From a virus (lineage: Duplodnaviria; Heunggongvirae; Uroviricota; Caudoviricetes): 29,075 bases of DNA. Made by a program: the position numbers and the translations under genes. The notes below the pieces were generated by a model, which saw only the letters and a list, made by a program, of their open reading frames with translations, did not search any database and was not told the origin of the DNA. The stretch lies in IMG/VR virus record IMGVR_UViG_2541047746_000007, one strand, 5' to 3'. Shown here in pieces: positions 1 through 4,840 of the stretch (the first letter of the stretch is position 1; the number at the start of each line of letters is the position of its first letter).

Positions 1-90
1 TTGCCTCCCCCCCGTTGATGGGTAAAATAGCCGCAATTTTTCGTTTTCAACAAGCGCGGCGCGATGCCGCTTACTCAAGAAGAAAGAATT

Positions 91-165
91 ATGACGTTGT
101 CTCCTTATTTGCAAGAGGTGGCGAAGCGCCGCACTTTTGCCATTATTTCTCACCCCAATAATTAA
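91..165 (+). pseudogene. prfC: 5' fragment of peptide chain release factor 3 gene, truncated at the prophage junction
   Basis: ATG at 91 translates [22 protein letters not shown], which I recognise as the RF3 N-terminus; instead of continuing into the GTPase P-loop (D-A-G-K-T) it reads N-N-stop (TAA 163-165). Recalled from memory, not searched. Confidence 0.6.
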
Positions 166-385: not shown

Positions 386-1621
386 ATGGCGCTGTCTGAT
401 GCGTGGTTGCGTTCAGTCGTTGGAAAGGAACGTGATAAGGTTTTGGTTAAATCCGATCGTGATGGTCTGTCTGTCAGAGTATCACCGAAAGGTCGCGTAG
501 TGTTCCAATATCGTTATCAATGGGCAGGGAAAGGTGAGCGCCTTGATATCGGAACTTACCCGGCAACTGGATTAAAAGAGGCCAGAGAAGAAGTTATCCG
601 TCTCCGTGGTGAACTCGAGTCAAGCCGCAATCCACGATTAGTCAAGCAGGCTGAAAAACGAAAAGCTACTGAAGCCATGACGGTAGAGTCTGTGATCCGT
701 GCCTGGTATGAAGCATATTGTGTAAAAAATAAAAAAGGTTCTGAACAGATACTCCGCTCGTTTGAGCTGCACCTGTTCTCTAAAATCGGGAATATCCCTC
801 ACGATGCAGCTACATTGCATGATTGGTTAGAAGTCCTGGAGCCTCTTAGCACCAAGACTCCAGCAATAGTAGACCGATTGCTAATTAACGCAAAGCAGGC
901 TCATGTCTGGGCGTATAAGAGAAAGCTCATTGAAACTCGCCCACTGTCGGATATCACGGGTAAAGATATGGATATCCGTAAAGGTCAGAAAAAACGGTTT
1001 CTGACACATGATGAAATTAACATCCTTTATGCTGCGATCGATGGTTCTCGAATGGTTCCTAAATACCGAGCCTTCATTAAACTATTGCTGCATTTTGGTT
1101 GCCGTAGTTCAGAGCTAATTACTGCTAGGGTGGATGATTTTGATTTCATAAATAAGGTATGGACTGTACCACCAGAACGACATAAGACTGGGGACATAAC
1201 AGGCGAACCGCTAAAGCGGCCCATTATTGAACCGGTTGAAGAGCTTATAAAATACGTTATCTCTATGAACAACGGTTCCGATATGCTTTTTACTAAGGAA
1301 GGAAGCAGGGAGCCAGTTGGTCGGACATCATTGCAGTCGCTGCCTTACAATTTAATGCAGTTCGCATGGCGACGTTTGGGGTATCAATTTCCTCATTGGT
1401 CTCTTCATGATTTGAGACGAACAGCACGAACAAACTTTTCTGATCTTACTGCTCCTCATATTGCTGAAATAATGCTTGGTCATAAACTGCCAGGTGTATG
1501 GCAAGTTTATGATAAGAGCGATTATCTAGAAGAACAGCGTAAAGCTTACTGGGCATGGTGGGAGAGGGTTGAATCGATCGTTACTTGTACTGACTTAATC
1601 TCCAACGGACAGTTTGCGTAG
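386..1621 (+). CDS. int: Tyrosine recombinase / phage integrase, P4-type with N-terminal arm-binding (DUF4102-like) domain
   Basis: 411-aa ORF. N-terminus (LSDAWLRS...GLSVRVSPKGRVVFQYRY...DIGTYP) fits the P4-integrase arm-binding pattern; C-terminus has HDLRRTARTNF and a downstream Tyr typical of tyrosine recombinases. RBS AAGGTGAG precedes the ATG. Sits next to the host junction. Confidence 0.9.
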   Translation: MALSDAWLRSVVGKERDKVLVKSDRDGLSVRVSPKGRVVFQYRYQWAGKGERLDIGTYPATGLKEAREEVIRLRGELESSRNPRLVKQAEKRKATEAMTVESVIRAWYEAYCVKNKKGSEQILRSFELHLFSKIGNIPHDAATLHDWLEVLEPLSTKTPAIVDRLLINAKQAHVWAYKRKLIETRPLSDITGKDMDIRKGQKKRFLTHDEINILYAAIDGSRMVPKYRAFIKLLLHFGCRSSELITARVDDFDFINKVWTVPPERHKTGDITGEPLKRPIIEPVEELIKYVISMNNGSDMLFTKEGSREPVGRTSLQSLPYNLMQFAWRRLGYQFPHWSLHDLRRTARTNFSDLTAPHIAEIMLGHKLPGVWQVYDKSDYLEEQRKAYWAWWERVESIVTCTDLISNGQFA

Positions 1622-1779
1622 CCAGAGCGTAATCATATCTGCCAGTCCGCTGCGGATACCTTGTGTACTGGGTTTTTAGCCAGACTACGTTAACCGGTAG
1701 CTTCAGTATTTGGGGTGTCGGCAGGAGTTTGATGGTTTATTGGGTTACTGTGGGACTAAGGATGTAGGGATGCCAATCG

Positions 1780-2913
1780 ATGAATTATGAAAAATATCAT
1801 AGCACAAACAGAAGCAAGGGTTTGCGAACCTTCTGCTACTTAATTTATTATGTGCAGGTGATTTTTAATGTGATGAAGTGTTTTATGACTCGCGGAAACT
1901 TTGATTTTATAAACTCTAACGTGGTTTTCTCAGAAGCCGATAAGTCATTGTGGATTGATCTCATTAACACCGATTGTATTTGGTATGATATGATAATTAA
2001 TCCTCCTGATGATATAAGAACAAATAAGATAATAAAGAACTATCTCAGAATTATGGAAAAATATACGAGGGAAAGCTGTGAAAAGAGATTTATTTATTTC
2101 TTAGGTTCAAGAAAAAAAGTGAGGTTTTCAACCAAGAAACAGCCTAGGTATAACCCATTCACAAAAAATATAGTATTCACTCTGTTGATTGGCAAAGAAG
2201 AGCGAAAGCTTCGGATAAAATATTCCTTTTGCACGTTTACGCAGAATGGGGTAGTGAAGGTAACTCCAAATGTTAGAGTAACTGAGAAGTTTCTCTACAT
2301 TGAATATGAAAATGGCAATTTATGTGTGATGTCAGTTCATGATTTCGTAAACGGACATTATATTGATTTAGGAATTCATACAGAAGTGCATTACGTAGGA
2401 TATACACGTCATCCGCATCGGCGCCCTGTTGATTTTATTCACCGTGGCTTATCAAAGATGCTGTATAGCGTTTCAAATGACGATAATGATTTTTTTGTTT
2501 GTTTTAGTATATTTAATCCAAGGATTATATCTCTGAATAATAAATGTAATGTGGTCTTTAATATTTCAAATTCTCTACTGGATGAAATTGATGTTGATAA
2601 TGAGGGGAGAATTATTGAAAACTGCTTAATACGTTACTTTGATCCTAAGCTTCAAGATGATGACAAGGAAAGTAAAAGGTCAGATTTAAATAAAATGTTT
2701 ATGGACCTGGTGGAAAATAAAAAAATTAAAAAAATATACGTTAATTTTCAATATGAAAGGAATAATGAGTATTTCTGCTTTTACTCTAAAGTTGTTCCGC
2801 CGAAATTTCATCATTTCTTTGTGTTGGATTTTTCTGATGGCAAGATAAATATTGATAGAGACCAGGATATGATGACTCAGATGGCATTGTGCATGGGGTA
2901 TTATAATTATTAA
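1780..2913 (+). CDS. Hypothetical protein, AT-rich orphan cargo gene (candidate defence/abortive-infection protein); start uncertain (alternative ATGs at 1873 and 1885)
   Basis: Long uninterrupted ORF in a region visibly much more AT-rich than the flanking phage DNA. Protein is rich in N/K/I/F/Y/D. I recognise no known motif (no Walker A, no clear nuclease or recombinase signature). Confidence 0.55.
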   Translation: MNYEKYHSTNRSKGLRTFCYLIYYVQVIFNVMKCFMTRGNFDFINSNVVFSEADKSLWIDLINTDCIWYDMIINPPDDIRTNKIIKNYLRIMEKYTRESCEKRFIYFLGSRKKVRFSTKKQPRYNPFTKNIVFTLLIGKEERKLRIKYSFCTFTQNGVVKVTPNVRVTEKFLYIEYENGNLCVMSVHDFVNGHYIDLGIHTEVHYVGYTRHPHRRPVDFIHRGLSKMLYSVSNDDNDFFVCFSIFNPRIISLNNKCNVVFNISNSLLDEIDVDNEGRIIENCLIRYFDPKLQDDDKESKRSDLNKMFMDLVENKKIKKIYVNFQYERNNEYFCFYSKVVPPKFHHFFVLDFSDGKINIDRDQDMMTQMALCMGYYNY

Positions 2914-3122
2914 TATTTCGCCTGATGCCAACTCAAAATCTTTTTTGTCGCATCCATTGTGGATTAATATTCAGAGGTAAGGGGTATCTGCGGAATTTAT
3001 ATTTTGCAGGATGAGCATACAATACATGATATAACATCTGTTTTTGGCACAGAGCATATAGTCAGATTATGTTTAGTTCTGTGCCATAGATGGATATTAT
3101 CTCACCTCTTGGCTAACTCTCA

Positions 3123-3317
3123 TTACTCAATAACTCCAGCAAATCTGTATATTTTGCGTGATGCCCATTTATTTGGGCAGGATTTAATATCAGGATCTGG
3201 AAAATCTGGCCTGTATTTCTGGCCTGTCCTCCTGTTTACGCTGTTCCAGCGAAGCACCGTCGATATTGAAACGCCACAGAATTCGGCGACTTGTTTTGTT
3301 GTCATTAAGTTGCTCAT
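3123..3317 (-). CDS. AlpA/excisionase-family helix-turn-helix protein (putative Xis or regulator)
   Basis: 64 aa; TTKQVAEFCGVSISTVLRW is an HTH_17/AlpA-type helix-turn-helix. RBS GGAGGGG lies 5 nt upstream of the ATG. It is the last gene of the leftward operon, adjacent to int. Confidence 0.6.
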   Translation of the reverse strand: MSNLMTTKQVAEFCGVSISTVLRWNSVNRRTGQKYRPDFPDPDIKSCPNKWASRKIYRFAGVIE

Positions 3318-3351
3318 TGCTACCCCTCCAGCGGTTGTTCAGTTGAAAGAC

Positions 3352-3888
3352 TCATGCGCATGTGCGTAACTCCGATAACTCGTTAAAGCGTTCCATAAAC
3401 ATCCCGTAGGCATGGCCTGGCGACAGTGGAATAACTTTGAACATCTCTGTGGCAGAGATGCCTTCCAGTACTGGCCAGAAAGAGCCATCCTCAAGCCCGA
3501 GATCGCGGCGTTCGGTTGCCAGCATGATGAGATCGGCATATTTCACGGGTGTACTCATAACCGGGGGTAACCCGTATTTCTCACGGATTACTGTGTCTAT
3601 TTTTTCTTCCATCCGTTTATAGTCAGGAAGAAAGCGTTTCAGTGGTGCGGGGATGTCCTGGCAATACGCTTCTGTTGCATCATGCATTAACGCTTCAAAA
3701 GCAAATTCCTGCGGTACCAGCTGGCTGCAAAGCACCGCATGTTGGGCGACGCTGTAGAAGTGTGAAAGATGACCGGCAAAGCGACAGATATTTGAAAGGG
3801 AAACCGCGATATCGTTAATATCGATGTCGTCTTTATTTATCCTGTCATAATAAAAATGCTTCCCGGAAAAAGTTTTAATAAATGACAT
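3352..3888 (-). CDS. yfdR: HD-domain phosphohydrolase, YfbR/YfdR-like 5'-deoxynucleotidase
   Basis: Motifs H..H (FAGHLSHF...AQHAV) and HD (ALMHDATEAYCQDIPAPLKRF) match the YfbR-type HD fold. Start moved to the ATG at 3888 (RBS GGAGAA), giving 178 aa, the length I recall for K-12 YfdR. Confidence 0.7.
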   Translation of the reverse strand: MSFIKTFSGKHFYYDRINKDDIDINDIAVSLSNICRFAGHLSHFYSVAQHAVLCSQLVPQEFAFEALMHDATEAYCQDIPAPLKRFLPDYKRMEEKIDTVIREKYGLPPVMSTPVKYADLIMLATERRDLGLEDGSFWPVLEGISATEMFKVIPLSPGHAYGMFMERFNELSELRTCA

Positions 3889-4015
3889 TTTGTTCTCCAC
3901 GTATATGCGTTGCACCGTGCTGAATTCTGGTAAAAGGAAGCCCTCACCATCTGGCGATTATTGGGTAAATTATGTTGACATAAATGCCCCCGCAGGGGCA
4001 TTTGCAGTAATGAAA

Positions 4016-4840
4016 TCAGGCGGTGAAAGTACCAATAAAGGTTTCTACTTTGCTGTCTTTGAATTTCTCAACAAGCAGATCACGAAATTCGTTAGCCATT
4101 TCTTCCTGCACCGCTTCCAGCTGAATAATGCGCAGAACCAGTACAGGACGATCGCCAGTGATAATGCTGAGGCGTAATTTAAACGGACGTTCTTTCAGAC
4201 CTTCAAACGGAACGCATTTAAATTCAAATGCCACTGGCATAATGTCTTTGGTCTTCGCTTCGACAGACTCCATCAGGGAGCGTTTGCCGCTGAAGTCATT
4301 ATCTTCAAAATCAGCGGTCTGGTTCGCTTCAATTGTGATTTTACGGATCGCCGCAGCCGCTTTGGTTGCCTGAATGGCGTCACCATTAGCATCAAAGCCC
4401 ACAAGGTAGTCGGCCCAGTCTTCAATCCATTCTGCCAGTGACTTCTGGGAGTTACGCTCGCCGTTAACAGACAACAGGGCAGAGAACGGTGCTGTCTTTT
4501 TCAGTTTGAGAGTGGCGGTGTTATCTGCGTGACCTGGTTCATCAATAGTACCCAGGTTAAGCACACTGACTGCTCGCATATTATCGGCATCAATAAAGCA
4601 GCGGGTGCCTTCATTTGCAAGATCTTTAGAATAACGGGTAAAGTCATCGATGCTGGCAGTGGAAAGCGCACCACGGAAACGGAAGCGATTTAAATTAAAT
4701 TTTTCCAGATCATGAATGCGGAAATTCTCAGGCAATGCCACAGCATCGGCACCAATCTTACTGATAATTTCATTAACACCCTGAGCAGAAATAAGGGCAT
4801 GGATTTGATTAATTGCGGTTGCGTCTAAGTTCTGAGACAT
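4016..4840 (-). CDS. yfdQ: YfdQ-like protein (DUF2303 family), function unknown
   Basis: 274-aa ORF with RBS GTGAGGA. Length and the P-Q-R gene order match the KpLE1/CPS-53 yfdP-yfdQ-yfdR arrangement as I recall it; not searched. Confidence 0.6.

Follow-up and report, generated by a model that had tools for sequence, protein, structure and literature searches.

A review lists three single-gene defense systems that have GIY-YIG or GIY-YIG-like domains: PD-T4-3, PD-Lambda-1 and Uzume. PD-T4-3, also termed CMoRE, is a type IV restriction enzyme from E. coli in which one gene encodes a GIY-YIG nuclease (PDB 9u75; PMC12923530). It is about 248 aa and has an N-terminal nuclease with the motif GIYxY-YIG, followed by a C-terminal sensor. 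This separate domain reads 5-hydroxymethylcytosine (5hmC) and its glucosylated form (5ghmC), a specificity that has been demonstrated, and an acidic loop over the active site restrains the enzyme (PMC12923530). The subject of this report is a gene for a protein of 342 aa that lies next to the integrase gene of an E. coli prophage. The prophage sequence is a stretch of 29,075 nt (IMG/VR record IMGVR_UViG_2541047746_000007), which is termed the window below. As judged from profile comparisons and a structure model, the central part of this protein is very probably a divergent GIY-YIG nuclease core. We lean toward the interpretation that the gene, which is in a cassette at positions 1650–3033, encodes a soluble single-chain endonuclease, and that it represents a solitary anti-phage or anti-mobile-DNA cargo that is carried to the lysogen.

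The 342-aa protein is like PD-T4-3, PD-Lambda-1 and Uzume in logic, but it is a member of none of these families. CMoRE is the nearest characterized analog, and the family described here also has a conserved acidic stretch (positions 197–202). However, there is no sequence relationship between the two proteins, and the family profile misses 9u75 when PDB sequences are searched. The order of the domains is also unlike that of CMoRE, i.e., a basic domain, the nuclease and a C-terminal domain, and the motif is S-V-H-D-F ... Y-V-G. PD-Lambda-1 and Uzume are likewise solitary defense proteins that contain a GIY-YIG domain, yet PADLOC-DB v2, which represents known and candidate defense systems, shows no match to the 342-aa protein at E ≤ 10. 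With the GIY-YIG superfamily as a whole (I-TevI, the UvrC N-domain, T4 EndoII and R.Eco29kI; PF01541, clan CL0418), the protein has in common the fold, the YIG motif, the Arg and the Glu. It differs in that the family is below the level of Pfam detection, mostly has His in place of Tyr, has an 18-residue spacing, and displays an inserted helix and a hairpin at positions 201–228. The protein family is a sequence orphan with a probable, re-wired GIY-YIG core and two unexplained domains, and the role of a prophage-borne solitary nuclease is already familiar.

The probable GIY-YIG core

Alignment of the family reveals the block HYVGYT-x-NP-xx-RP-xxxx-H-x-G, followed by E-G-x-I-I-E ... YF ... Q, which resembles the active site of GIY-YIG nucleases. 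The core was compared by hhalign with a reference set that consists of I-TevI, a relative of I-TevI, UvrC from E. coli and B. subtilis, YhbQ, human SLX1 and T4 EndoII. These reference sequences were kept only if they passed PF01541, with Cho excluded as sub-threshold; the I-TevI sequence was verified against PDB entries 1mk0 and 1ln0. A search for I-TevI homologs for the GIY-YIG profile gave nine close relatives only. The core profile (122 sequences) aligns with the reference set over 84 columns with a score of 27.4 (P = 1.1e-4). Three hundred column shuffles of the core give a mean score of 9.3 ± 1.8 and a maximum of 17.1, none of which equals the real score, and the reversed core profile scores 9.1, compared with 27.2 for the real one. 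With the N-terminal and C-terminal regions of the protein, the same comparison gives P = 0.34 and P = 0.55, respectively. In a separate test of the GIY-YIG resemblance, the remaining four matches are to small beta-domains of the DUF971 type (N-termini of BBOX1 and TmpA, 3luu and 3k8r), which presumably correspond to one of the flanking domains.

The residues that align with the active site of I-TevI are highly conserved in the 122 members. Y170 is present in 110 and G172 in 114, the candidate catalytic arginine R180 in 109 and the candidate metal-binding glutamate E245 in 108. The I-TevI counterparts of the last two, R27 and E75, are the residues that were mutated in PDB 1ln0 and 1mk0, respectively. 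H186 is conserved in 107 members. The superfamily has a conserved Asn about 15 residues past the Glu; position 260, which falls on N90 of I-TevI, has N in 71 members and D in 19. The core also has the acidic stretch S-N-[DE]-[DE]-N-D at positions 197–202, where D202 is near-invariant (119/122). The proposed core motif reads S-[IV]-[H/Y]152 ... Y170-V-G172 ... R180 ... H186 ... E245 ... N/D260. Two peptide motifs had been quoted from the open reading frame (ORF) when the gene was first singled out; both are present in its translation, and one of them, HYVGYTRHPHRRP, is the YIG-Arg part of the putative active site.

The GIY-YIG fold is an alpha/beta core of about 100 aa in which helices flank a three-stranded sheet, and the predicted structure of the core of the 342-aa protein agrees with it. 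In the AlphaFold2 (AF2) model, strand 146–150 is followed by an inserted helix (positions 151–157), and a long beta-hairpin (positions 201–228) is inserted before the Glu helix. The original prediction had considered a degenerate PD-(D/E)xK nuclease or an entirely new fold. Neither structure nor sequence supports a PD-(D/E)xK nuclease, and the resemblance of the core to GIY-YIG domains argues against both proposals.

Several observations weigh against the assignment of the core and the interpretation built on it. The HH-suite probability of the alignment between the core and the GIY-YIG set is only 56%. The window protein and the family consensus give no match to PF01541 or its clan at the gathering threshold or below it, and only one of 40 members reaches PF01541 in a Pfam scan, with a sub-threshold E value of 0.012. 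The original prediction had recommended a profile search together with a structure search; a profile-profile comparison detects the GIY-YIG relationship, and Foldseek against PDB and BFVD gives no match at E ≤ 0.001. At position 152 His mostly replaces Tyr: of the 122 members, 98 have H and 16 have Y. The half-motif S150-[I/V]-[H/Y]152-D-F154 is 18 residues before Y170, compared with the canonical 10–11, and it is outside of the hhalign alignment, such that position 152 is a putative equivalent of the GIY tyrosine. The window protein has Asp at position 260, where the family and I-TevI have Asn. In addition, WP_225092812, A0A193M1C9 and PhiR63_1 are mentioned in no paper among those searched.

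A divergent subgroup (with members such as P0103, P0112, P0114, P0118 and P0143) matches the N-terminal domain and part of the core, apparently without Y170 and/or E245. The columns at Y170 and E245 are A or Q in these sequences, and the family profile is matched in two stretches. Inactivation or a change of role in these relatives could account for this, as could misalignment.

Table 1. Positions of the cassette, the cargo gene, its predicted domains and motifs, and the adjacent prophage genes in the window
Feature	Positions	Strand	Evidence
Tyrosine integrase of the prophage, directly 5' of the cargo gene and co-oriented with it	386–1621	+	Pfam PF00589, PF13356, PF22022; RefSeq
Mobile cargo cassette: one gene with ~235 bp upstream and ~120 bp downstream	1650–3033	.	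Two independent homology comparisons
Non-conserved 35-codon N-terminal extension of the 377-aa ORF	1780–1884	+	Absent from all homologs
Promoter-like site TTGCGA-18-TATTAT, 5' of ATG 1885 (weak evidence)	1822–1851	+	Consensus scan
Conserved coding sequence, candidate solitary GIY-YIG nuclease	1885–2913	+	RefSeq start, PHROG 7779, dN/dS, GC 0.321
N-terminal beta-rich basic domain (aa 1–141), proposed DNA-binding or sensor domain	1885–2307	+	
Very probable divergent GIY-YIG nuclease core (aa 142–262)	2308–2670	+	
Putative variant of the GIY half-motif, S150-V-H152-D-F154	2332–2346	+	Conservation table; after strand 146–150
YIG half-motif, Y170-V-G172	2392–2400	+	Aligned to I-TevI Y17-V-G19
R180, candidate catalytic arginine	2422–2424	+	Aligned to I-TevI R27
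E245, candidate metal-binding catalytic glutamate	2617–2619	+	Aligned to I-TevI E75
C-terminal alpha/beta domain (aa 263–342)	2671–2910	+	AF2 model; conservation
Excisionase (64 aa), convergent with the cargo gene	3123–3317	-	PHROG 1553, E = 1e-34

Flanking domains

The two domains that flank the core are unique to the family, as found by a search with the 122-member profile. The N-terminal domain has an isoelectric point of 9.7 and a net charge of +11 (family median +8). The basic charge is concentrated in aa 60–110, around the conserved sequence E-K-R-F-I-Y-F-x-x-S-R-K-K-V-R-F. Because this domain is beta-rich and strongly basic, it is predicted to bind nucleic acid. The C-terminal domain has the conserved residues S301, H310 and F312 and possibly functions in oligomerization.

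The 342-aa protein shows no hydrophobic or transmembrane segment, the maximum 19-residue hydropathy being 0.87. A membrane protein that functions in superinfection exclusion, which had been considered for this position next to the integrase, is therefore unlikely.

Coding sequence and family

The original prediction took the cargo gene to be a 377-aa ORF at positions 1780–2913 (+), flanked by an integrase and an excisionase. The ORF exists and its location is confirmed by Pfam for the tyrosine integrase and by PHROG 1553 for the excisionase, but the conserved gene is shorter and begins at ATG 1885. This is the start annotated in RefSeq, where the 342-aa product is termed a 'hypothetical protein' (WP_225092812.1). 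The PHROG 7779 profile alignment begins at residue 36 of the 377-aa ORF, all homologs have the N-terminus M-x-R-G in common, and the Serratia and Klebsiella orthologs have in-frame stop codons just 5' of the conserved start. These data agree, and the 35-codon extension is therefore not conserved. The Serratia copy of the 1780–1884 stretch has a 1-nt indel and a stop codon. The stretch is probably the 5' leader of the cargo gene.

The cargo gene is real and under purifying selection. It is a 1-kb ORF at 32% GC, homologs of its product reach down to about 20% identity, and the ratio of nonsynonymous to synonymous substitution rates (dN/dS) is 0.12–0.20 in every pair without saturation of dS. These dN/dS values rule out a pseudogene or a chance ORF. 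The region had been described as visibly AT-rich, and this is borne out by the base composition: GC is 0.321 for positions 1885–2913, compared with 0.445 in int and an overall value of 0.470 in the window, and it drops to 0.30–0.33 over positions 1800–3000 with 0.43–0.50 on either side. In seven of seven hosts checked, the cargo gene is AT-richer than its own flanks.

Promoter-like sites in the cassette region are at chance level in a consensus scan (8 found, 7.9 expected). The site at positions 1822–1851 has its -35 hexamer kept in the Serratia copy, but not the -10. A scan of the cassette found no terminator for the cargo gene, and checks of the 235-bp leader for Rfam families, small ORFs and notable RNA folds were negative. 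The gene has the same orientation as int, and it could also be transcribed by read-through from int.

The protein belongs to PHROG 7779, a family of unknown function. It has nothing significant in Pfam and no match in NCBIfam; a marginal match to NNH2 (E = 0.05) was dismissed. Neither the single protein nor the family profile retrieved more than chance matches from the PDB sequences. A first database search found 47 family clusters, and an exhaustive hidden Markov model (HMM) search of 1.84 billion representatives found 218. The earlier statement that the protein matches no family is thus correct for Pfam, NCBIfam and PADLOC, but not for PHROG 7779 and its 218 clusters. Nearly all full-length members are 320–345 aa and have a single architecture, and a 122-member profile search for other architectures returned family members only, all of which lack Pfam domains. 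Among 50,697 deposited phage records, one has a member of the family. IMG/VR has 14 loci that are at least 98% identical and all from the lineage of the window prophage; in each of them, 1.5 kb separates the gene from the integrase end. The 342-aa protein is not mentioned in the main texts of DefensePredictor and of a domain-centric screen, and WP_225092812 is not listed in the DefensePredictor supplements, as far as these were searched.

A mobile cassette in a swappable slot

Three sister prophages have the same yjjG-side attachment site and share the integrase (91–93% nucleotide identity) and the xis-yfdR side with the window. Their homology to the window ends at positions 1641–1651 and restarts at 3033–3062. 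A conjugative plasmid of Serratia liquefaciens has a match to window positions 1650–3033 (84% identity over 1402 nt) with unrelated flanks. As the sister prophages and the Serratia plasmid independently give the same bounds, the gene is part of a discrete cassette of about 1.38 kb. The full int-cargo-xis arrangement is present in 61 of 5426 complete E. coli genomes.

The sister prophages have different cargo in this slot. That of E. coli 98201 has an identical attachment site, an integrase that is > 90% identical, the same slot bounds and a single AT-rich cargo gene, which encodes a dGTPase (PADLOC defense model, E = 9e-105). The two cargo proteins have no relationship to each other: depletion of nucleotides is the activity of the dGTPase, whereas the 342-aa protein is predicted to cut nucleic acid. 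The second sister has WP_001564320.1 (515 aa, L014:2380–3927, - strand) in the same slot, and the third has WP_000040218.1 (239 aa, L015:2495–3214, + strand). Neither shows a match in any library scanned (Pfam, PADLOC), and both are candidates for unknown defense genes of this int-proximal hotspot.

An imperfect inverted repeat of 34 nt (74% complementary) is present at window positions 3020–3053 and 3078–3111, at the junction of the cassette and the backbone downstream of xis. Possible roles of this repeat are those of a bidirectional terminator or of a site for recombination. The core hairpin of this repeat, TCCGCT-N10-AGCGGA, is found in the sister prophages and recurs just past the cassette in the Serratia plasmid. 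The common hairpin suggests a prophage backbone as the source from which the plasmid captured its copy. The repeats CTGCGGA and GGTATC at the cassette ends were also considered as functional elements, but they are not conserved in Serratia and are probably due to chance.

Gene neighborhoods of homologs

A comparison of 12 independent contexts shows homologs beside recognized defense genes in five (including the E. coli hotspot), in a mobile-element or toxin-antitoxin (TA) setting in three, and in uninformative surroundings in four. In Salmonella Carmel the homolog is beside an m5C-methylase/DUF4928/Vsr module inside an integrative and conjugative element (ICE). The Robbsia homolog is between BrxR and BilABCD on one side and two reverse transcriptases on the other, and that of Klebsiella variicola has a type I restriction-modification (R-M) system and a large reverse transcriptase on one side and an HNH protein of the ScoMcrA type on the other. 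The Proteus homolog directly follows CTD6/MC2 proteins in an integrase-bounded island at smpB; we take these proteins to be components of an ABC-3C conflict system. The defense loci beside distant homologs are of the R-M, Bil, DRT-like and ABC-3C types. The Acinetobacter homolog adjoins a Tn7-like transposition module, a Pseudomonadales metagenome-assembled genome has the gene next to CcdAB and a PIN toxin, and the Serratia context is the conjugative plasmid described above. The contexts in Arcobacter, Budviciaceae, Psychrobium and Cronobacter are the uninformative ones.

No partner gene is conserved across the contexts examined. The Arcobacter homolog is 30 bp after three co-oriented genes (L009:5859–8960) that encode a Band_7/SPFH protein, a 140-aa protein and a 250-aa protein. 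This arrangement looks like an operon and is the sole context that hints at partner proteins. There is also no adjacent methyltransferase in the cassette or in the 11 other contexts; the methyltransferase near the Salmonella homolog belongs to its own methyltransferase/DUF4928/Vsr module.

Proposed function and alternatives

The original prediction regarded the gene as foreign int-proximal cargo and a candidate for an uncharacterized defense gene. This idea is well supported by context, i.e., a bounded and swappable cassette, a dGTPase in the same slot of a sister prophage, and homologs in defense islands. The protein probably functions in defense. The mechanism proposed here, in which nuclease activity, DNA binding by the N-terminal domain, expression in the lysogen, a defense phenotype and the mode of discrimination are all inferred, would have two steps. 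The basic N-terminal domain would recognize a feature of invading DNA and provide target discrimination, and the GIY-YIG site would then cut the recognized DNA. By established GIY-YIG chemistry, from which the residue roles were assigned, E245 would hold the metal, R180 would stabilize the transition state, and Y170 and H/Y152 would act on the scissile phosphate. Because no methyltransferase accompanies the gene in any context, self/non-self discrimination would not be that of classical R-M, and a Type II R-M system was rejected for lack of a partner methyltransferase. The most likely mode would be recognition of modified or otherwise phage-specific DNA, type-IV-like as in PD-T4-3/CMoRE. By this analogy, direct, feature-dependent restriction of the type IV kind can be suggested tentatively. 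It is more doubtful that the family represents an unrecognized class of solitary restriction enzymes, in which a new N-terminal reader of phage-specific DNA is combined with a re-wired GIY-YIG site. Such a reader would recognize a base modification other than the targets of SRA, EVE, McrB-N or CMoRE-C, or a structure-specific cue, and the site would use His for the first Tyr, with an 18-residue spacer.

The defense-island contexts fit an abortive-infection (Abi) or toxin-type GIY-YIG nuclease as well as they fit direct restriction. An enzyme of this type would be switched on by a phage protein or an infection cue and would kill or arrest the cell, with host and phage nucleic acid degraded indiscriminately. 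In the lysogen it would be kept inactive by the acidic loop at positions 197–202 or by the flanking domains. The nuclease is solitary, without a methyltransferase or an immunity partner, the conserved acidic stretch that ends in D202 recalls the autoinhibitory acidic loop of CMoRE, and TA modules (CcdAB, PIN) are neighbors in some genomes. Against this, nothing points to toxicity or to a trigger, and CMoRE, a characterized single-gene GIY-YIG defense enzyme, restricts directly and not by Abi. The basic N-terminal domain also resembles a DNA-binding module and not a protein sensor, although this is a weak inference. The Abi explanation is considered unlikely. A nuclease that serves the phage itself, by degradation or nicking of host DNA as with T4 EndoII, or in recombination, repair or anti-plasmid competition, is improbable. 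Most members of the family are outside of phages, in chromosomal islands, ICEs, plasmids and a Tn7-like element, and in the phage collections the family is confined to a single E. coli prophage lineage. Moreover, the gene is in an int-proximal accessory slot where a defense dGTPase can take its place, and it is not part of the early or late lytic operons.

The AT-richness of the gene and its patchy presence in E. coli genomes would be explained by a free-standing GIY-YIG homing endonuclease that cuts cognate int-xis sites lacking the gene and spreads by repair. In GIY-YIG homing enzymes of the I-TevI/Seg type, which reside in phage genes or introns, the catalytic domain is N-terminal and is tethered to NUMOD or helix-turn-helix (HTH) DNA-binding modules at the C-terminus. 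The domain order of the 342-aa protein is wrong for such an enzyme, as the core is central, and Pfam finds no NUMOD or HTH module. The slot also holds unrelated cargo, including the defense dGTPase, which indicates a general accessory hotspot, and the family is nearly absent from phage collections. The Serratia plasmid and chromosomal copies have unrelated flanks, and there is therefore no co-converted homing site. These properties make homing very improbable. There is a still smaller chance that the core is a catalytically dead GIY-YIG-like scaffold, a DNA-binding regulator or sensor without cleavage. The His in place of the GIY Tyr, the non-canonical spacing, the Asp of the E. coli protein at the position of N90 and the failure of curated GIY-YIG HMMs to detect the family are all consistent with a dead scaffold. 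However, Y170, G172, R180, H186 and E245 are each 88–93% conserved at identities down to about 20%, as is expected of a working site. His can take the role of general base, and Tyr is present at position 152 in 16 members.

Prophage context

The window is an E. coli lambdoid prophage that is inserted beside yjjG. The cargo region is essentially identical to that of PhiR63_1, which has been deposited as a complete lambda-like temperate phage. The integrase has the Pfam domains Phage_integrase, Arm-DNA-bind_3 and Phage_int_M. At the place of the excisionase, the PhiR63_1 record has a 121-aa hypothetical protein on the + strand (window positions 3004–3369) and the RefSeq annotation is blank; the excisionase seems to have been missed or assigned to the wrong strand in both public annotations. 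In every lysogen examined, the RefSeq annotation includes an 'incomplete hypothetical protein' of 69 nt in the stretch from yjjG to int (L001:2592–2660), just upstream of int at about window positions 90–160. It is probably a truncated 5' remnant of the integration-target gene or a duplication of the att site. On the other side of the slot, xis is followed at window positions 3352–4840 (-) by yfdR, which encodes an HD-domain 5'-deoxynucleotidase (PHROG 318), and yfdQ (DUF2303), as in prophages of the CPS-53/KplE1 type. As a nucleotide-metabolizing enzyme beside the accessory slot, YfdR may itself be relevant to phage-phage conflict.

In the early region of the prophage there is an ISL3-family transposase gene at positions 11949–13169 (PF01610, E = 1e-58), preceded by a DUF1706 gene at 11412–11930. 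This arrangement (positions 11412–13169) is missing from the PhiR63_1 annotation. The window prophage therefore differs from PhiR63_1 and may be disrupted there. The replication module has an orphan phage-type Dam N6-adenine methyltransferase gene at positions 9852–10538 (+) (PF05869, E = 1e-45), 7 kb from the nuclease gene. This Dam is unlinked to the nuclease, but any sensitivity of the nuclease to adenine methylation would make it relevant.

Implications

A nuclease gene on a prophage hotspot is of a kind that specialists would expect. If the 342-aa protein is a working defense nuclease, its family would be the fourth sequence-unrelated single-gene GIY-YIG defense family, after PD-T4-3/CMoRE, PD-Lambda-1 and Uzume. 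In that case the active site would have to be defined more broadly, to include the substitution of His for Tyr and the stretched spacing of the GIY-YIG motif. The flanking domains, which are without detectable relatives, may encode a new type of foreign-DNA recognition. If the family does represent a new reader joined to a re-wired GIY-YIG site, it would add a sensor fold and a catalytic variant to the superfamily and would possibly yield a reagent for the mapping of modified bases. The int-proximal slot represents a small natural library of interchangeable single-gene cargo, i.e., the dGTPase, the gene described here and two unannotated genes, and it can be screened directly.

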